Positions 29,784 to 55,744 of a DNA stretch of 64,000 nt are shown one piece after another. The first letter of the stretch is position 1, and each line of letters begins with the position of its first letter. The DNA comes from Candidatus Tectimicrobiota bacterium (lineage in GTDB: Bacteria; JACPUC01), in NCBI GenBank assembly GCA_016192455.1, contig JACPUC010000018.1:1-64000 (forward strand), in the 5' to 3' direction. The translations under genes and the position numbers were made by a program. The notes beneath the pieces were generated by a model. It was not told the DNA's origin, did no database searches, and was given only the letters and a program-made list of their open reading frames with translations.

Positions 29784-29910
29784 GGCGACTTTTCGAGTGG
29801 CGTTCGCGCGGGAGCGAGGCACCTCTCCTCTTTAGGGTCTTTCTCGCGTTCCACGTGTAGGCCATTTCGGTGGCGTTAGTATGGGTACTCAGATGGAGGG
29901 GGATGCACCA

Positions 29911-30837
29911 ATGGCTGGTCACTGGAAAGAAGTCGTCAGGCTCCGTTTTAAGGGCAGTCGATTTCGGGACCACGCATTAGACATTGGCGCCATTACCGAA
30001 CTGAGCCGCTTTCAGAAGATGATAGCGGAGACTGCGAAGACTCTCTGGCGTGAAAGTCATCCCGAACGAGAACGGCTCCCAAAGCATTTCGAAGAACGCA
30101 CGAGCCTTTGCCTACGCAGAATCGCAGAAGGAAGTGCCGTGGCTCCCTTGGAGGTATACATCGGAGGACCTACGCAAGAAGAATTATTTGAACAGGATAC
30201 TGCCGAAACCGAAGTTGAAGAAGCGATCGAGTTAGCCCATAAGGTCTTCCATGCCGCACAAATAGATGAACCACTACCCCCGATATTCCCGAAGACATTA
30301 ATTCCAGAATACGAAAACTTTGGGCAGGGACTTGAGGATGATGAGGAAATCGAGATGATGATAGATGAGAAGGAACCAGCCCATGTAACTCCTACATCAC
30401 GCTCCCGCTTAGCTGCGTTGGTTGATGTTCCACACGAAAATCAGGTTGATGTAACAGGCGAGGTACTAGAGGCCGATGTCAGACAAGGACGGTTCCAGGT
30501 ATGGTTGGATGAGAAGACTGGCATTTCTGCGGTATTCTCTCCGGAGCAGGAAGACCATGTAACAGGTGCACTTCGGGACCACAATACATTGCGACTTCAA
30601 ATCATTGGCGAAGGGGAGTTTTCTCCACAAGGCAAACTTTTGCGTATCACAAAAACGGAAAGGTTGTTACTTAAGACTCTGGCAGATGCGGAAGATGCTT
30701 ACGATACCACCGTCAAGCCTATAGAAGATGTCCTGACCGAGTTAGCCCGAGAGGTTCCCCAGGAAGATTGGGATAAACTTCCGCCTGACCTTACAGACAA
30801 CCTCGATCACTACCTTTACGGAACACCTAAGCGATGA
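29911..30837 (+). CDS. Hypothetical protein with a C-terminal VapB-type antitoxin-like peptide
   Basis: GGAGGGGG RBS before ATG 29911 (alternative start 29881); ends LPPDLTDNLDHYLYGTPKR; ATGA overlap with the PIN gene. Confidence 0.8.
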   Translation: MAGHWKEVVRLRFKGSRFRDHALDIGAITELSRFQKMIAETAKTLWRESHPERERLPKHFEERTSLCLRRIAEGSAVAPLEVYIGGPTQEELFEQDTAETEVEEAIELAHKVFHAAQIDEPLPPIFPKTLIPEYENFGQGLEDDEEIEMMIDEKEPAHVTPTSRSRLAALVDVPHENQVDVTGEVLEADVRQGRFQVWLDEKTGISAVFSPEQEDHVTGALRDHNTLRLQIIGEGEFSPQGKLLRITKTERLLLKTLADAEDAYDTTVKPIEDVLTELAREVPQEDWDKLPPDLTDNLDHYLYGTPKR

Positions 30838-31256
30838 GAACGGTCTTTGTCGACACACTTTACTGGGTTGCTAGAGTTCGACCGTGCGACCCTTGGGGAG
30901 AAGCTGCACGGCTGGCCAAATCGTCACTTGGGGCAGTTCGCCTCTTAACTACAGACGAAGTTCTAACCGAGTTCTTAACCGCTCTCTCGAGGGGAGGTGA
31001 ACATCTGCGACGTCAAGCAGTAAGAATGGTACGAAGTATTCTTGACGATCCAAACGTTCAGGTCACTCCTCAGTCTCGAAATTCATTTCTTCGAGGCATT
31101 GAACTGTACGAACAACGTCCCGACAAAGAATACAGCTTAACCGATTGTATTTCAATGAGTACGATGAGGTCTCTATCAGTTGCTGAGGTGTTGACAAACG
31201 ATACCCATTTCAACCAAGAAGGATTTCGAGTACTAATAACCAAGCAAGAATCCTAA
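30834..31256 (+). CDS. vapC: PIN-domain (VapC-like) toxin
   Basis: VFVDT, EVLTE, SLTDCIS and LTNDTHF acidic tetrad; 140 aa. Confidence 0.9.
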   Translation: MRTVFVDTLYWVARVRPCDPWGEAARLAKSSLGAVRLLTTDEVLTEFLTALSRGGEHLRRQAVRMVRSILDDPNVQVTPQSRNSFLRGIELYEQRPDKEYSLTDCISMSTMRSLSVAEVLTNDTHFNQEGFRVLITKQES

Positions 31257-31359
31257 ACTGATAAGTGGGCACATCGAGACACGTTGCCCGGCGTGAAGCG
31301 GCTCTCTCCTTCTTGCAGCGAGGGCCACCCACCGATTTCCCCGCGCCCCACATTTCGTC

Positions 31360-31445
31360 CCCCTGTGCCCTGCCGCAATCTGCATGGCTTCGCGGGCGTG
31401 GTCAAGCATGTGCCGCAGCCGCACCGCATCATCATGCCGCGACAT
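31360..31445 (-). pseudogene. Truncated HEPN (DUF86/HepT) toxin remnant
   Basis: MSRHDDAVRLRHMLDHAREA is a typical DUF86 N-terminus overlapping the MNT stop; similarity is lost after about 28 codons and no RxxxxH motif follows. Confidence 0.75.
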
Positions 31446-31731
31446 ACAGGTCCTCCGCCTCTTCCAAAATCTCATCGCGAAAGTAAGGGCTGAGGAAGCC
31501 AGGCGTGTTGAGGTCTACCTTGCGTCCCAGAATCTCCGAGAGTTCGCGTTCGATGGCAAAGAACCGCAGACCTACCCTCGTCTGCGGCTCGAACTCGACG
31601 AGCATGTCAACATCGCTGTCGGGCCGGAAGTCCTCACGCAGGACGGAGCCGAACAATGCCAGGCGCCGGACGCGGTGCCGTTGGCAGAAATCGCGGATGG
31701 CTTCCGCCGGGATGTGAATGCGCGCGCTCAC
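31432..31731 (-). CDS. Minimal nucleotidyltransferase (MntA-type antitoxin)
   Basis: LALFGSVLREDFRPDSDVDMLVEF...LGRKVDL; 99 aa; GAGGTG RBS. Confidence 0.92.
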   Translation of the reverse strand: MSARIHIPAEAIRDFCQRHRVRRLALFGSVLREDFRPDSDVDMLVEFEPQTRVGLRFFAIERELSEILGRKVDLNTPGFLSPYFRDEILEEAEDLYVAA

Positions 31732-31961
31732 GTTCGTTCACCTCGTGGCTAGCATACCATACTGCGCCCTCCTTGGCCGCCGGAGAAAGGAGCGGCCGGT
31801 CGTGCCCGGCCGGATGCCTCGGGCGTGCAGGCCTTCCGCCGCGCATCCTGTTCTGACAGAGCAACCCCTTGCCGCGCTTGATTTTCTAACCTCTCCCTCC
31901 CATAGTGTGAACACGCGACGTCTGCGAAAAGCGGGCGGGCGCGAAGGCAGAAGGACGCGGC

Positions 31962-49415: not shown

Positions 49416-50648
49416 TCACAGCGGCTTCTCGGCGGCGGTCGCCGGCAGCGCGGGGCGCAGTGCGATGGGCTTGATCACGAAGAGCGCGCTCACGGCCCCC
49501 AGCAGCAGGGAGATGCCGGCAAAGTAGAAGAGCGCCACGCCGCCGTACCGGTCGGCGAGGAAACCGGCGAAGATCGGCGTGATGGCGGCCAGGAGCTGGT
49601 TGGCGCTGAAGATCAGCCCCACGACGCTCGCCCCCGTCTCCTCGGGGGTGGCGTCAAGCGCCGCCGCGAAGATGATCGGGCGTACCGAGAAGAGGAACAT
49701 GCCGAGGAAGAAGAGGGTGATGAGGAAGGCCAGCCCTTGCCCGAGGGCGACGAGGAGCAGGCTGCAGAGGCCGGAGATGATGAAGGCGGTGAGCATGATC
49801 GTCATACGGCCGATGCGGTCGGAGAGCGCCCCCATCATCGGCCCGGCGAAGAGACTGGCGATGGAGGCGCTGCCCAGGTAGACGCCGATCATCTTGGGGC
49901 TGAGGTGCCACTCCTTGGCGAGGTAGAGGGGCAGCAGCGTGATGATGGCCTGCTGGGCGGTGGTGCGCAGCGACGACACCGCGGAGAGCCAGAGCATGAC
50001 GGGATGCTTGATGAGCTTCTTCAGTGCCATCCGGTACTCGGCCAGGTTCAGCCGTTTGCCCGGCCCGGAATCTCCCAGGCGGTCGGAGATGGTGAACCAG
50101 ACCAGCAAGGCGAGGAGAAGTCCCGGCAGGATATTGAGAGCCGCCGCCGCGCGCCAGCTCAGGAAGGTGAGGACAAGCCCGAAGACGAGGGGGGAGAGGA
50201 GATCACCGAGGCCGGCGCCGAACTCGTGGGTGGACATGGCGAAGCCGCGGCGGTCCGGCATGAGGGAGGAGAGGAGCGACATGGCAGGGGGATGCCACAA
50301 AGAGGCGCCAAAGCCAAGCAGCCCCATGGCAATCATGATGATGCCGATGCTGGGGGCCAGGCTGAGGAGGAGGTAGCCGAGGGAAGGGACGGCGAGGGCC
50401 AGCATGAGGGAGCCGGTGCGCTTGCCAAGGACGTCAACGAGCGCGCTTCCCGGCAAATTCACGCAGGCCGAGATGAAGAAACGCACCGAGCTCATCACGC
50501 CGATGTGCGCGTAGCTCAAGCCAAACTCGGCGGCGATGAACGGGCTCAGCAGCCCGAAGGCGCCGGTATTCCAATGCGTATCGAGGTGGCCCAGCGAGAT
50601 GATGGAGAGGATTGCAGTGCGGGTGCGTTTCACAGTCCTCCTTTGCAT
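49416..50648 (-). CDS. MFS transporter
   Basis: About 12 hydrophobic segments; GALSDRIGR motif; WHPPA; AGAGG RBS. Confidence 0.92.
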   Translation of the reverse strand: MQRRTVKRTRTAILSIISLGHLDTHWNTGAFGLLSPFIAAEFGLSYAHIGVMSSVRFFISACVNLPGSALVDVLGKRTGSLMLALAVPSLGYLLLSLAPSIGIIMIAMGLLGFGASLWHPPAMSLLSSLMPDRRGFAMSTHEFGAGLGDLLSPLVFGLVLTFLSWRAAAALNILPGLLLALLVWFTISDRLGDSGPGKRLNLAEYRMALKKLIKHPVMLWLSAVSSLRTTAQQAIITLLPLYLAKEWHLSPKMIGVYLGSASIASLFAGPMMGALSDRIGRMTIMLTAFIISGLCSLLLVALGQGLAFLITLFFLGMFLFSVRPIIFAAALDATPEETGASVVGLIFSANQLLAAITPIFAGFLADRYGGVALFYFAGISLLLGAVSALFVIKPIALRPALPATAAEKPL

Positions 50649-50849: not shown

Positions 50850-51896
50850 TTACGCCACGGTGCGCCCTAGCACGCCCCCCTCGAAGAAGAGCCAAGTGCG
50901 CCCGTCGGCGGAAGGGCGCCGGTTGAGTCGAACGAGATCGCCGGTGTGGTACTTGATGATCGGCTGGGCGAGCTGCATGTAGCTCGTGTAGACCAGCTCG
51001 CCCACCTCCCCGTCGCCGACGGGCTTCCCCGCGGCATCGAGCACCAGGCAGTGCCCGCAATCCTCCACGGCGTGTAGGCCCTCGCCTGAATGGAACCCCA
51101 CCGCCACGACGCCGGTCTCATCGTGCAGCAGGACGCGGTGGACCTGCGCCCCCCAGGTGGCCGCGAGGTCGTCGCGCAGCGTGGCGGAGCCGGTCGTGTC
51201 TGCACCGGCGATGAAGAGGTGGCGGAGGCTCGTGCCGGCCAGATCGAACCCCTCCTGGCGGGCCGCTTCGCTCAAGGCCTGCACCTCCTCCAGGGTTGCC
51301 AGCATTGCCTGGGGCCGGCGCTGCTCGATCTGGCGCAGCCGCGCCTGGTGATCCAGGCCGCCGCCCGAGAGCATCATGGCGCCGAGACGCCGGACGCCGA
51401 AGTAGGCGCTCCAGAGGCCCAACCGCAGGTCCCAGTTGAACGGCAGGTAGCAGAGGGTGTCGGCGCGCAGCCCAGCGGCCCAGAAGAGGTAGGCCCACGG
51501 CTCTCCGTGCAGGGTGGCGCCGGCGTAAGAGAGCGGAATCTCCACGGGGGCGTTGCCGTTTCCCCGCTCCTGGAAGCGGAACAGCAGGTCATCCTCGCGC
51601 AGCGCCAGGGCGTCTCCGTAGGGCGGTTTCGTTGGCTGGGCTGCGGCGAGGTCTGCCTTGCGTATGGTTGGCACCAAGCTCGCGAAGTCCTCCAGGCTGT
51701 GAACATCCTCCGGCCTGATGCCGGCGGCGGCGTAACGCTTCCGATACAGTGGGCTGTGCTCGTAAGCGTGCCGCAGGAGCGCCCGTAGCCGCCGCAGGTG
51801 CAGCGCTTCGAGCTGCGCCCGCGGCATCGTCTCCAGCAGCGGGTTCCAGAAGGTGCTGGCGGCGCTCTGTGGGTTGAGGAAGCTGCGAAACTCCAT
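50850..51896 (-). CDS. Degenerate PaaK-like (ANL) paralog lacking the P-loop and C-terminal domain
   Basis: Aligns by eye with 52558..53952 (ETMPRAQL.ALHLRR, WSAY.GVRRLGA, QPIIKY, GGVLGRT); continuous ORF; start 51896 or 51914. Confidence 0.85.
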   Translation of the reverse strand: MEFRSFLNPQSAASTFWNPLLETMPRAQLEALHLRRLRALLRHAYEHSPLYRKRYAAAGIRPEDVHSLEDFASLVPTIRKADLAAAQPTKPPYGDALALREDDLLFRFQERGNGNAPVEIPLSYAGATLHGEPWAYLFWAAGLRADTLCYLPFNWDLRLGLWSAYFGVRRLGAMMLSGGGLDHQARLRQIEQRRPQAMLATLEEVQALSEAARQEGFDLAGTSLRHLFIAGADTTGSATLRDDLAATWGAQVHRVLLHDETGVVAVGFHSGEGLHAVEDCGHCLVLDAAGKPVGDGEVGELVYTSYMQLAQPIIKYHTGDLVRLNRRPSADGRTWLFFEGGVLGRTVA

Positions 51897-52027
51897 GCCG
51901 CGTACCTTCCGCATGCAACCGTTCAGCCGAGGCTCCCTCGAACACGAATCTCCGCCCCAGGCGCCGCCGCGGTTGTTTGCGGAGCTCTCCCTGCCCGCGA
52001 GAGACCGCTTCGGGCGCGGTGCGGGTC

Positions 52028-52057
52028 ATCATAGGGCAGGTATTTTGGGGGGGTCAA
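52028..52057 (-). promoter_or_regulatory. sigma70-type promoter for the degenerate PaaK paralog
   Basis: Minus strand TTGACC-N18-TATGAT. Confidence 0.7.
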
Positions 52058-52135
52058 GCCGATTCGCTGCCCGGCGGCGTCGGGGCGCCGCCTGGACGCC
52101 GCCGCCGTGCCAACCTGCCGGGGGCGCGCCTCTTC

Positions 52136-52165
52136 TTGACACGTCACAGGGCTCTGTTCTAAGGT
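52136..52165 (+). promoter_or_regulatory. sigma70-type promoter for the small ORF and PaaK-like ligase
   Basis: TTGACA-N18-TAAGGT. Confidence 0.65.
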
Positions 52166-52272
52166 AACGGCGAATGCGGCGCGAGGCCCGGCGCTCCGTC
52201 CCCTCTGCGGCAGCGGAGGCTGACCGGGCAGGCCGGGGCGGTGATCCTGGTGTCGCTCTCGGAGGTGCAAGG

Positions 52273-52458
52273 GTGACGCGCGAAGCTCTCCTCGCACGAT
52301 TGCGGCGGATTCGCGATGAGATTGAGGCCGTGCGCCGCGAGACGGACAGCCCGGCCATCGACAGCGCCATGCGCAGCATGAGCATGTACTGCCACTTGGC
52401 GCGCTCGTACCTAGGGGATATTGACGCTATCTGCCCGGAGGTGGAGCAGGTTGACTGA
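52273..52458 (+). CDS. Small helical hypothetical protein (61 aa)
   Basis: GGAGGTG RBS at 52261 and GTG start; MTREALLARLRRIRDEIEAVRRETDSPAIDSAMRSMSMYCHLARSYLGD... Confidence 0.75.
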   Translation: MTREALLARLRRIRDEIEAVRRETDSPAIDSAMRSMSMYCHLARSYLGDIDAICPEVEQVD

Positions 52459-52557
52459 GAGCCCGGAGGGCGAGGGCGTGGCCCTGTCGTCGCAGTCCGC
52501 GGCAGGAGTTCCCGCCGCCTCTCCGGCGCCCTGCCGCTCGAACTTGGAGAGCCCACG

Positions 52558-53952
52558 ATGGTTCGACCCTTCCACAACGACCACGCAAACGCTTCCCCCT
52601 ACTGGAACCCCGGGATGGAGACGATGCCGCGGGCGCAGCTCGATGCCCTGCATCTGCGGCGCATCCAGCTCATGATCCGCTTTGCGTACGAGAATTCGCC
52701 GTTCTACCGCAAGCTTTACCGCGAAGCCGGCTTCACCCCGGATGACATCCGCAGCCTCGACGATTTCATCCGCCTCGTGCCGGTCATCGACAAGAAGGAC
52801 CTCGTGCAAGCGCAGGGTGCCGGCGCGCCCCCCTACGGCGACGCCCGGGCCCTGCCGGAGGAGTACAACCTCTACCGCTTCCAGACCTCCGGCTCCACCG
52901 GCACCCCCTTGCAGATTCCGTTCGGCTACTACAGCAGCGCGCAGTACGGCGAGCAGTGGGTCTACGGCTTCTGGGCCGTGGGCCTGCGCGCCTACCACAC
53001 ATTCTACTTCGCCTTCAACTGGGGCACCTTCGCGGGTTTCTGGAGCGCCTACTGGGGGGTGCGCCGCCTGGGCGCCACGGTGATCTCCGGCGGCGGCCTC
53101 GACACGAAGGGGCGCATCAACCACATCCTCCAGTCCAAGCCCGACGTCCTCGTCGCCACGCCCACCTACGCCTTGTACATGGCGGAAGTGGCGAAAGGGA
53201 TGGGAGTTGACCTGCGGGAGACGACGATCAAATACTTCTACAGCGCCGGGGAACCCGGACCCAGCATCCCCACAACGCGACGGGCGATCGAGGAGGCGTG
53301 GGGGGCCAAGGCGTTTGAGCTGTACGGCATTGCGGAGGTCGGCGCCATTGCGCCGGGTTGCCCCCTCCAGGGGGGCGTGCACCTGGCCGAGGATTGGGCG
53401 CACTCGCTGGTCCTTGGCGAGGACGGCAAGCCCGTGGCTGCGGGTGAGGTGGGCGAGAACGTCGTGACGAGCTACGTGCAACACGTGCAGCCGATCATCA
53501 AGTACCGCTCACATGACTTGGTGCGCCCGCGCTACGGCATCTGTGACTGCGGCCGCACCTGGACCTACTACGATGGCGGTGTGCTGGGCCGCACCGACCA
53601 CATGATCATTATCAAGGGCACGAACGTCTACCCGACGGCCGTGGAAGCCCTCCTCGGCGACGTGGCCGGGCTCTCCGAGCATTACGAGATTCACGTCGAC
53701 ACCGAGGATAAGAGCGATAGCATCACCGTGAAGGTCGAGGCGGCGCGGGGTCTGCCGAGCGAGCAGTACGAGAAGGCGGCTCAGGAGGCAGCGCGGCTGC
53801 TCTACAAGTCCATCATGGTGCGGATCGGGATCAAGGTGCTGCCGCCCGAGTCCCTGCCGCGCTACGAGTTGAAGGCCAAACGCTTCTTTGATCATCGACC
53901 GGCGGGGAAGGGGTGGGTGATGCGCGAGGGGACCGCCTCGGCGCCGCGCTAG
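52558..53952 (+). CDS. Phenylacetate-CoA ligase (PaaK)-family adenylate-forming enzyme
   Basis: QTSGSTGTP, ELYGIAE, YRSHD, GRTDHMIIIKGTNVYP and LPRYELKAKR motifs. Confidence 0.93.
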   Translation: MVRPFHNDHANASPYWNPGMETMPRAQLDALHLRRIQLMIRFAYENSPFYRKLYREAGFTPDDIRSLDDFIRLVPVIDKKDLVQAQGAGAPPYGDARALPEEYNLYRFQTSGSTGTPLQIPFGYYSSAQYGEQWVYGFWAVGLRAYHTFYFAFNWGTFAGFWSAYWGVRRLGATVISGGGLDTKGRINHILQSKPDVLVATPTYALYMAEVAKGMGVDLRETTIKYFYSAGEPGPSIPTTRRAIEEAWGAKAFELYGIAEVGAIAPGCPLQGGVHLAEDWAHSLVLGEDGKPVAAGEVGENVVTSYVQHVQPIIKYRSHDLVRPRYGICDCGRTWTYYDGGVLGRTDHMIIIKGTNVYPTAVEALLGDVAGLSEHYEIHVDTEDKSDSITVKVEAARGLPSEQYEKAAQEAARLLYKSIMVRIGIKVLPPESLPRYELKAKRFFDHRPAGKGWVMREGTASAPR

Positions 53953-53989
53953 CGCCCCTCTCGTCGCGCCCGCCCGCAAGGTTCGAAAA

Positions 53990-54475
53990 GGCTCTGGAGT
54001 CAGGGAGGCTGACTCTGTGTAAGCCACGCTGTCACTCCTTACTTTCTCTCCTTAATGTCCTGACCCTCCGCTTCCGGCAGGAGCCGCCGCGGGGGTATCT
54101 CACCTTCCGTTCTCGTTTCGCTCGTTGACGAGGAGCTTGTCGAACCTCCAGTCTGAGACCCGGTCCCGGAAGGGTTGCCGTCTGTCTGGGAGCCCGACTG
54201 GGACGTGGTCCCGTCCTGAGAGGTGGCGCCGCTGCCGGAGGCGCTCCCGCGTTCGGGTCGCTGCTTCCGCTGGCGTTCGCATCCGTGCTCTGCCCGCTGT
54301 CGTTCGCGCTCGTCTCCCCGGAGCTGGTGCTGCTGCCATCGGTCGCCGGGGCGCCGCTCTCGGCGCTGCCGGAGTTGGCGGCCGCATCGTTGGGCGTGTC
54401 GCTCTTTCCCCTTCCCTGGCGAACCGAAAAAGTGCCCATCCAAGTCCTTGACGACCCCGCTCCGGAAATCTTGCG
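53990..54475 (-). pseudogene. Frameshifted remnant of a Ser/Gly/Thr-rich protein gene and a following gene start
   Basis: Low-complexity coding signal continues across a frame switch near 54247; AAGGAG plus GTG at 54027 leads into no recognisable ORF. Confidence 0.45.
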
Positions 54476-54625
54476 AGGTGGCGGGAGGATGCGGACGGCT
54501 GCGTCGTGGGTGCCCCACGCGTGCAACGTCGGCGTCCCTCGGTTCGGCGAGAGGAGGCGGCATGTCCGGGGCGAAGCCTCGACGGTGCGGGGCGGGCTGT
54601 GGCGCGGTGGTCTTGACGAGGATCG

Positions 54626-55744
54626 TCAGGCGAAGAGCAGGGCGCGGGCGATGATGAGGCGCTGGATCTCCGATGAGCCGTCGTAGATGCGCATGATGCG
54701 CACGTCGCGGTAGTAGCGCTCGACGATGTTCTCGTGCAGGCAGGCGCCGCGTTCGAAGAGCTGAATGGCACGGTCGGCGGCGCGCCAGGCGGTCTCGGTG
54801 GCGAGGAGCTTGGCCATCGAGGCCTCGGTGGAGCAGCGCTCGCCGCGATCCATGCGGGCCGCGGTGGTATAGAGGAGGAGCCGCGCCGCCTCGCACTCGA
54901 TGGCGCAATCCGCCAGGAGATGCTGACCGTCGCCGCGGCGTGCGCGGGCCTCCGCCGCCATGCGCTCGAGGAGGCGCTGCGCCGCGCCCAGGCCGCCGGC
55001 GGCCATGCCGATCCGCCCCTTGTCGAGCGTGCGCATCGCCAACCTGAATCCCTGACCGAGCTCGCCGAGGAGGTTCGCGGCCGGGACCGTGCAGTCCGCA
55101 AGCACGAGCTCGCACGCAGCCGAGCCGCGCAACCCCATGAGCTCGTGTCGCTTGCCGATGGTGAAGCCGGGCGTGCCGCGCTCCACGAGGAAGGCGCTGA
55201 TGCCGCCGTGGGCGCCTTTGGCGGGGTCGGTGACCGCGAAGACGGTGAAGTAGTCGGCGTGCGGCCCGTTCGTGACGAAAATCTTCCTGCCGTTGAGGAC
55301 AAACGCCTCGCCGCGGCGGACGGCGCGCGTCTCGATGCGCGCGGCGTCGGAGCCGGCATTCGGCTCGGTGAGCGCAAAGGCGCTGAGGCGTTCGCCGCGG
55401 GCCAGCGGCGGCAGGTAGCAACGGCGCTGTTCTTCGCTGCCGCCATAGAGGATGCCCATGGCGCCGATGCCGATGTTTGTCGTAATGCGGGAGCGCACGC
55501 AGAGATTGGTGCGGGAGAGCTCCTCGATCGCCACCGCCTCATGGAGCAGCGGCAGCCCCAGCCCGCCGTAGTCCTTCGGGATGGCCATGCCGTAGAGCCC
55601 CAGCTCGGCGAGCCGCGCGTGAAGGCTGGCCGGGAACTCATCGTCACGGTCGAGGGTCGTCGCCAGGGGCTCGACTTCGGTGCGCACGAAGTGGCGTACA
55701 TGGTCGCGCCACCGCAGCAGATCGTCAGAGAACGAGAAGTCCAT
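54626..55744 (-). CDS. Acyl-CoA dehydrogenase family protein (atypical)
   Basis: FALTEPNAGSD, NGRKIFVTNG, GISAFLVE, TLDKGRIG and ERYYRD..IYDGSSEIQR motifs. Confidence 0.92.
   Translation of the reverse strand: MDFSFSDDLLRWRDHVRHFVRTEVEPLATTLDRDDEFPASLHARLAELGLYGMAIPKDYGGLGLPLLHEAVAIEELSRTNLCVRSRITTNIGIGAMGILYGGSEEQRRCYLPPLARGERLSAFALTEPNAGSDAARIETRAVRRGEAFVLNGRKIFVTNGPHADYFTVFAVTDPAKGAHGGISAFLVERGTPGFTIGKRHELMGLRGSAACELVLADCTVPAANLLGELGQGFRLAMRTLDKGRIGMAAGGLGAAQRLLERMAAEARARRGDGQHLLADCAIECEAARLLLYTTAARMDRGERCSTEASMAKLLATETAWRAADRAIQLFERGACLHENIVERYYRDVRIMRIYDGSSEIQRLIIARALLFA

Follow-up and report, generated by a model that had tools for sequence, protein, structure and literature searches.

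The ligases PaaK1 and PaaK2 of Burkholderia cenocepacia (2y27, 2y4n, 2y4o) are a paralog pair in one genome. So are two neighbouring proteins of the stretch analysed here, a 64-kb window of ~67% GC from contig JACPUC010000018.1 of a Candidatus Tectimicrobiota bacterium: the short protein P0001 on the minus strand and the full-length PaaK-like ligase P0002 on the plus strand. The likeness extends to the two-domain architecture and to an N-terminal three-helix microdomain of ~70 residues, as described in the available portions of two reports (PMC8388817, PMC4432964). The same portions describe homodimers that form through the sheet of the N-terminal domain, and in PaaK1 this sheet is formed at the dimer interface (PMC4432964). 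PaaK1 and PaaK2 are both active and full length. In contrast, P0001 is without the P-loop, the GEPG and YG motifs, the hinge aspartate, and the C-terminal domain.

HCL, the 2-hydroxyisobutyryl-CoA synthetase of Aquincola tertiaricarbonis (6hdw, 6he2), is both the best sequence match of P0002 and the best fold match of the P0001 model. It dimerises through a seven-stranded sheet, according to the part of the report at hand (PMC8388817). HCL is, however, a full-length active enzyme that is 27-28% identical to P0001 by structural alignment, and the accessible portions of the literature on HCL describe no dead partner. EhpF (3hgu/3hgv, ~346 aa) resembles P0001 in being a member of the adenylate-forming superfamily with an N-terminal domain only, but in Foldseek the two share a query-normalised TM-score (TMq) of only 0.61-0.62 and an identity of 13-14%. 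EhpF counts as an atypical ANL protein and probably has a catalytic role in the tailoring of phenazines; it is not known to have a neighbouring full-length paralog. A curated PaaK-related family of N-domain length, NF045666 (DVU_1553 'AMP-dependent CoA ligase'), has a model of 331 positions. P0001 matches positions 157-316 of this profile at 80.4 bits against a cut-off of 300, and is not a member. The literature search returned nothing on the DVU_1553 family and no description of a dead PaaK paralog or of a PaaK without its C-terminal domain. A more distant parallel is HisZ with HisG, a case of the general kind in which an inactive paralog of an adenylate-forming or aminoacyl-tRNA synthetase-type enzyme is kept as a subunit of an active enzyme. 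Cases of this kind involve another fold and family, are conserved over many genomes and have been shown biochemically, whereas the role of P0001 is predicted and the protein is seen in a single lineage.

P0001 is read here as a lineage-restricted non-catalytic paralog, or pseudoenzyme, of the neighbouring ligase and as its likely partner subunit, with a probability of roughly one half. As in a pseudoenzyme, clear homology to an enzyme is combined in P0001 with loss of catalytic residues. We infer that P0001 is expressed, that it would bind P0002, and that the binding would have an effect. With a single lineage and predictions as its basis, the case has moderate weight at present. If the reading is right, it would be an instance of bacterial pseudoenzyme regulation within the ANL superfamily, and a natural test of the reasons for obligate dimerisation in PaaK-type enzymes. 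Few bacterial enzymes are as heavily annotated as the ANL ligases, and pipelines call proteins such as P0001 'phenylacetate-CoA ligase' even though they are unable to adenylate.

The P0001 gene (50850-51914, minus strand) consists of an N-terminal domain only, by BLASTP, Pfam and alignment. It has 354 codons from its first ATG. The likely start is the ATG at 51896, which follows GGAAGG at a distance of 8 nt and from which the protein has 348 aa; the 348-aa form is protein-database entry P0004, with 2 member sequences and 5 contigs. The P0002 gene (52558-53952, plus strand) encodes a PaaK-like acyl/aryl-CoA ligase of 464 aa with all motifs, including the P-loop TSGSTG, and with the C-terminal domain PF14535 at 78.8 bits. 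BLASTP aligns P0001 to residues 3-346 of P0002 only, with 166 of 344 positions identical (48%, E 5e-111) and a single one-codon in-frame gap over the 344 aligned codons. The homology of the two proteins is far beyond chance. Among solved structures, the closest to P0002 in sequence is 6hdw (217 bits), and further matches are the Bacteroides PaaK-like ligase 4r1l (212 bits) and PaaK1 2y27 (185 bits). On the PaaK equivalog models TIGR02155 and NF041878, P0002 scores 220-226 bits against cut-offs of 646-700, and is thus PaaK-like and not PaaK proper. P0001 reaches 103 bits on these models, whose cut-offs are 646 and 700.

Motifs were compared in an alignment with nine relatives; conservation of family columns was scored over 79 aligned enzymes, and alignment A4 comprises 59 enzymes. 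The P-loop (motif A3) reads FQERGNGNAP in P0001 and FQTSGSTGTP in P0002, so that ERGNGN stands for TSGSTG, a stretch in which T and the second G occur in 100% and S in 99% of the 79 enzymes. The TPTYA segment is ATLEEVQ instead of the ATPTYAL of the enzymes. The GEPG segment is AGADT instead of AGEPG, with A238 for the glutamate and T240 for a glycine. Motif A5 (YGxxE) is VLLHDE in P0001 and LYGIAE in P0002, with L263 for the glycine. The glutamate and the two glycines lost at these sites are fully or almost fully conserved among the enzymes. P0001 keeps the A7 aspartate (YRTxD; D326) and the arginine of the A8 hinge (GRxD; R351), while the hinge aspartate is V353 and the protein ends at A354. 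The C-terminus GRTVA, against GRTDHMII in P0002 and GRTDxM in the enzymes, places the stop two codons past the hinge Arg-Thr. In A4, all 59 enzymes share two P-loop glycines, the GEPG glutamate, the YG glycine, the A7 aspartate, the hinge arginine and aspartate, and Lys439 of motif A10. P0001 retains only the first P-loop glycine, the A7 aspartate and the hinge arginine; the other P-loop glycine is replaced by Asn, the GEPG glutamate by Ala, the YG glycine by Leu and the hinge aspartate by Val, and the catalytic lysine is absent. Outside these motifs, P0001 retains ETMPRAQL.ALHLRR and WSAY.GVRRLG.

In a related ligase, substitutions of P-loop threonine and glycine lower activity 1000-2000-fold, according to data tabulated in a review (PMC8388817). 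These data and the motif losses together indicate that P0001 is no adenylating enzyme of the usual kind; judged from its motifs, it cannot adenylate in the usual ANL manner. Pfam detects PF14535 in P0002 and not in P0001, and a hidden Markov model of the PF14535 domain finds no second copy and no remnant in any of the six frames of the whole window. The 201 bp between the P0001 stop and the next gene, which encodes a transporter of the MFS type, are too short for a C-terminal domain. An inversion with a breakpoint at the hinge, leaving the C-terminal domain between the start of P0001 and a small gene upstream of P0002, was considered and dropped, as this segment gives no match to the model. 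The first-pass annotation of the window had described two open reading frames (ORFs) aligning along the N-terminal domain, the motif differences quoted above and an end at GRTVA exactly at the hinge, all of which are seen in BLASTP and the alignment. Its statement that P0001 has no frameshift or internal stop agrees with the intact frame of 348 codons from the ATG at 51896, or 354 from the first ATG. Its view that the lost motifs are needed for adenylation is upheld by the loss of columns invariant in 59 enzymes and by the missing lysine.

Trees of 46 and 30 sequences place P0001 in a poorly resolved subclade with P0002, L001 (from a groundwater metagenome-assembled genome) and Rokubacteria sequences. 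The nearest relative of P0002 is P0267, which is 80% identical and lies on a contig of 1869 bp; the next relatives are 68% identical. P0001 falls outside the pair of P0002 and P0267, which has 100/100 support. The copy is therefore old relative to a protein divergence of 20%, and a recent duplication of P0002 is not supported. A clade of P0001, P0002 and P0267 is neither supported nor rejected (approximately unbiased test, p 0.514). Rare residues give P0001 no special tie to P0002, with which it has 9 in common, against 15 with L004, 14 with L003 and 12 with L001.

One alternative is that P0001 is a relic, a copy that lost its C-terminal domain by deletion or rearrangement and is now decaying, with the open frame and the residual conservation as leftovers of selection in the past. 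The few stop codons to be expected in a 67% GC genome would have helped the frame stay open. This explanation is possible, and we hold it to be unlikely. Changes were counted by a three-sequence (Tajima-type) comparison of extant sequences, and those unique to P0001 are spread unevenly: 14 of 57 sites in residues 16-105, 24 of 62 in 106-195, 44 of 67 in 196-285 and 12 of 43 in 286-352. Uniform decay is unlike this contrast of 25-28% change in residues 16-105 and 286-352 with 66% in 196-285 (Fisher p 5e-6 for 16-105 against 196-285). Residues 16-105 are the three-helix microdomain and residues 196-285 the catalytic core. In the orthologs the order is the inverse, and residues 196-285 are the best conserved, with an identity of 0.70-0.90. 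The family consensus is kept by P0001 at 47 of the 62 columns that are at least 95% conserved, at 38 of 64 columns conserved at 80-95%, and at 32 of 88 at 60-80%; in variable columns the retention is 19 of 79 at 40-60% and 12 of 52 below 40%. The sparing of 47 near-invariant columns is hard to reconcile with a relic. Where P0002 has the same residue as the outgroup, P0001 differs at 15 of the 62 most conserved sites and at 34 of the 57 least conserved ones (chi-square p 0.0012). Among 84 columns that are at least 90% conserved there are 26 losses, most of them at motif sites (in the clusters 116-124, 151-162, 202-215, 238-244, 263, 323/325 and 353), with only R85 elsewhere.

The reading frame gives a similar picture. 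At least 97 changes are unique to P0001, and 97 missense changes predict 3.8-5.1 nonsense changes when the genes' own codons are used; no stop is seen where 4-5 are expected (probability of none, 0.006-0.023), and there is no frameshift. Under decay, insertions and deletions would add to the improbability of an intact frame, as bacterial pseudogenes generally show. The codon-position GC signature is intact, with.73/.48/.88 at the three positions, like that of other genes of the window. The age of the copy, which predates a split of 20% protein divergence, speaks against a decaying relic as well, and so do a promoter-like site with 10 of 12 matches and a Shine-Dalgarno-like sequence. By the pattern of change, constraint has been lifted from the catalytic core, whereas rates in the microdomain and the terminal beta-region are close to normal. 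P0001 is thus apparently not in uniform neutral decay and may be maintained by selection.

The AlphaFold model of P0001 has a mean predicted local distance difference test (pLDDT) of 93.9 and a predicted template modelling score (pTM) of 0.91. Foldseek matches it to HCL 6he2 at a TMq of 0.90 and to PaaK1 2y27 at 0.84, which is the fold of a PaaK N-terminal domain. The first-pass annotation had stated that PaaK enzymes dimerise through the N-terminal domain, as PaaK-type ligases indeed do in the available portions of two reports (PMC8388817, PMC4432964), and it had suggested a heterodimer and a multimer prediction as a check. The predicted complex of P0001 and P0002 scores 0.79 (runs.79/.79/.76), against 0.01 for the best control, with alignments A4 and A3. 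The mark that it passes is one that 116 of 157 solved complexes attain, compared with 2 of 215 mismatched pairs. The contacts agree between runs by at least 78%, and the pLDDT of the partners is at least 87. The predicted interface is the pseudo-two-fold one of PaaK and comprises residues 107-115, 160-163 and 174-187 of P0001 and residues 101-107, 154-157 and 169-181 of P0002. On the P0001 side, residues 107-115 are the strand that precedes the dead P-loop and residues 174-187 the GVRRLG...SGGG segment, and both face equivalent parts of P0002.

A possible course of events follows from the partner-subunit reading. P0001 would have arisen by duplication before the split of P0002 and P0267. Truncation at the hinge would then have removed its C-terminal domain, and every nucleotide-binding motif would have been lost. 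P0001 would since have been kept as a folded N-terminal domain, in which the microdomain (~16-105) and the last beta-region (286-352) are best preserved. PaaK-type ligases need dimerisation of the N-terminal domains to buttress the P-loop, and P0001 is predicted to pair with P0002 through the same sheet. P0001 and P0002 together would form a dimer with one active site.

Several results weigh against a maintained partner subunit, the first being the absence of P0001 elsewhere. A word-indexed search of 5.8 billion proteins (8000 candidates scored, 114 matches at E<=1e-3) finds only P0004, the protein itself, as a close match, and the rest are full-length enzymes of at most 48% identity. An exhaustive HMMER search of 1.84 billion representatives gives 7485 matches at E<=1e-3, of which the best full-length match other than P0001 itself is 41% identical. 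A scan of the genomes of 185,579 species yields 79 related loci, and none of the 79 has a P0001 ortholog, or any protein more than 48% identical to it. In tblastn with P0002, a full-length ligase is found in every related locus where the contig permits, and the second ligase copies of eight two-copy loci are full length or cut by contig ends. A protein of 352 aa, P0008, was rejected as an ortholog: its TSGSTG is intact, and it proved to be a chimeric fragment. Sampling of the lineage is thin, as the identities of 80% and 68% for the nearest relatives of P0002 show, so the missing orthologs are weak evidence. The first-pass annotation had suggested searching for the pair in other genomes, and had named a degenerate copy unique to this genome with neutral dN/dS as evidence against its proposal. 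The pair is found in 0 of 79 loci and two protein searches return no closer relative; therefore, the unique-to-this-genome half of that clause applies.

The rate of evolution points in the same direction. The terminal branch of P0001 is 1.39 or 1.19 long in the two trees, against a median of 0.21. With L006 as the outgroup, P0001 has 97 unique changes and P0002 has 11 (p 1e-16); with other outgroups the counts are 77-99 and 15-29, and P0001 has evolved 4-9 times faster than P0002. Fifteen of the 62 near-invariant sites (at least 95% conserved) are lost. The NG86 values are all rough, since the synonymous distance (dS) of ~0.8-0.95, at a third-position GC of ~0.9, is at or near saturation, and dN/dS (omega) is unusable for this reason. 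With this limit, the omega of P0001 by region is 0.41, 0.79, 0.85 and 0.36, and the whole-gene value is 0.60, against 0.27 for P0002 and its ortholog L001. A crude additive split of the NG86 distances, which we distrust, gives an omega of ~1 on the P0001 branch. Between the two paralogs, codons 106-195 have a lower dS (0.54) than the other regions (0.87-0.95), a difference that may stem from past gene conversion or from noise. The relic explanation draws on the restriction of P0001 to one lineage, on the 4-9 fold rise in rate, on the loss of every catalytic motif and on the higher whole-gene omega. The window also contains many long spurious ORFs, and the amino-acid composition of P0001 is marked as atypical for the family, both of which agree with a relic.

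The structural models have limits of the same kind. The confidence of AlphaFold in P0001 is largely due to the enzymes in the alignment. The score of the complex may reflect likeness only, as homodimers of PaaK and HCL have been solved, and the pass shows that P0001 still resembles a dimerising PaaK N-terminal domain and not that binding occurs. At the predicted interface 22 of 35 positions are identical between P0001 and P0002, against 144 of 312 elsewhere, which is a trend only (p 0.074).

Three further degenerate N-terminal domains that end at the hinge are found among the best 150 of the 7485 HMMER matches: P0203 (337 aa), P0213 (343 aa) and P0228 (321 aa). All have a degenerate P-loop, TPTYA and GEPG, and their identities to the nearest intact enzymes compared are 50%, 42% and 38%, respectively. 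The relatives of P0203 are ordinary full-length enzymes with QTSGTTG. These three proteins could represent fragments of pseudogenes, or else additional examples of the device seen in P0001. Their shared pattern suggests that dead truncated copies may arise repeatedly in the PaaK family.

The MFS gene (49416-50648, minus strand) encodes an MFS_1 transporter of 410 aa (Pfam PF07690, 166 bits), and all its NCBIfam matches are far below the cut-offs. It is co-oriented with P0001 and lies 201 bp downstream, with no terminator-like site between the two. This arrangement allows for a role of P0001 without the ligase, as an acid binder or sensor that works with or regulates the MFS transporter, or as an enzyme of new chemistry. 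ANL proteins without a C-terminal domain do exist, as EhpF and the 331-position DVU_1553 family show, and the most-changed region, 196-285, lines the active site, where the changes could be a re-tuning and not a loss. Nevertheless, we consider a stand-alone role improbable. P0001 is remote from both precedents (80 of 300 bits on DVU_1553; 13-14% identity to EhpF), and its conservation is highest in the microdomain and the sheet rather than around the pocket. An MFS homolog above 60 bits is found in none of the 79 related loci, which speaks against a conserved system and also counts against a stand-alone role with the transporter. The first-pass annotation had proposed, besides a heterodimer partner, a ligand sensor or substrate chaperone for this co-oriented MFS; the co-orientation stands, and the transporter is not a conserved neighbour of the ligase clade.

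The relatives of P0002 adjoin genes for ABC (ATP-binding cassette) transporters of the Liv and NMT1 types, TetR, amidohydrolase, CoA-transferase, UbiD and M20 peptidase. This setting fits a role in acid uptake and activation. In the window, an acyl-CoA dehydrogenase gene with three ACAD domains (54626-55744, minus strand) is convergent with the ligase gene and is a possible pathway neighbour. Of the 79 related loci, five (L067, L066, L054, L079 and L063) have an ACAD homolog above 150 bits.

A small gene (52273-52458, plus strand) lies between the two paralogs, 100 bp upstream of P0002. With GTG as its start codon and GGAGG 7 nt before it, the gene encodes a protein of 61 aa. This conserved gene of the ligase module, located in the intergenic gap, had been missed in the first-pass annotation. 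A jackhmmer search covered all ORFs of the related loci, of which 70 have at least 300 bp after a complete ligase; in 59 of these 70, a member of its family directly follows the ligase, mostly at 40-90 bp. The gene order is reversed in the window, where the small gene precedes the ligase, whereas in the related loci it lies 3' of it. The protein matches no Pfam or NCBIfam family. In the Atlas it falls with clusters named 'hypothetical' (394 and 136 members) and is modelled as a helical hairpin. Its conserved motif is approximately P-x-I-E...A-D...L-H-x-A-L-W-N-L-G-E...P-E. Examples of ~58-61 aa are found at L053:11389-11562, L003:11362-11535 and L006:2370-2540, and the loci span several phyla. 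The small protein could be a subunit or a regulator of these ligases that has so far gone unrecognised. It is a separate lead and easier to test.

The active ligase, the hairpin protein and a lineage-specific dead N-terminal domain replacing one dimer subunit could together form an undescribed three-part system, which at present is a doubtful proposal. It would amount to an asymmetric enzyme with one active site, in which the dead subunit tunes activity or the coupling to uptake. In that case P0203, P0213 and P0228 would represent the same device, invented independently in other PaaK clades.

Tandem full-length ligases with intact P-loops are present in L034, L035, L036, L038, L045 and L046, mostly from Alphaproteobacteria. 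L060 and L041 also carry two ligase copies, cut by contig ends. The tandem loci have one small-protein gene after the second ligase; it follows immediately in L034, L035 and L045, and lies 0.5-2.9 kb past the second ligase in L038 and L036.

A promoter scan of the region reports 3 sites, where shuffled sequences give 0.4 on average. The promoter-like site of P0001 (52028-52057, minus strand) is TTGACC-18-TATGAT, with 10 of 12 matches. On the plus strand, a putative promoter of TTGACA, 18 nt and TAAGGT (52136-52165) was read by eye; its -35 is perfect (TTGACA, 52136-52141), and its -10 is weak (TAAGGT, 3/6), so that it falls below the threshold of the scan. The near-consensus promoters that had been proposed back to back are accordingly found for the short gene, while the plus-strand one has the weak -10. 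The gap between P0001 and P0002 measures 643 bp and holds the small gene, and the plus-strand promoter would thus serve both the small gene and the ligase. Judged from the promoter-like sites, both divergent transcripts of this region (51915-52272 and 52459-52557) would have leaders of ~100-125 nt. Structured RNA was sought in these leaders, and no Rfam match at the gathering score is found anywhere in the window. The ~670 bp between the ligase and the acyl-CoA dehydrogenase (53953-54625) contain only doubtful ORFs rich in Arg, Ser and Pro, and a terminator-like hairpin 3' of the ligase gene (54089-54110, plus strand).

A patch of low GC (29881-31749; 0.54 against ~0.67) lies elsewhere in the window and contains an ORF of 318 aa without a Pfam match. 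Its stop overlaps the start of an ORF of 140 aa with a PIN domain, and the two may be an acquired toxin-antitoxin-like pair.

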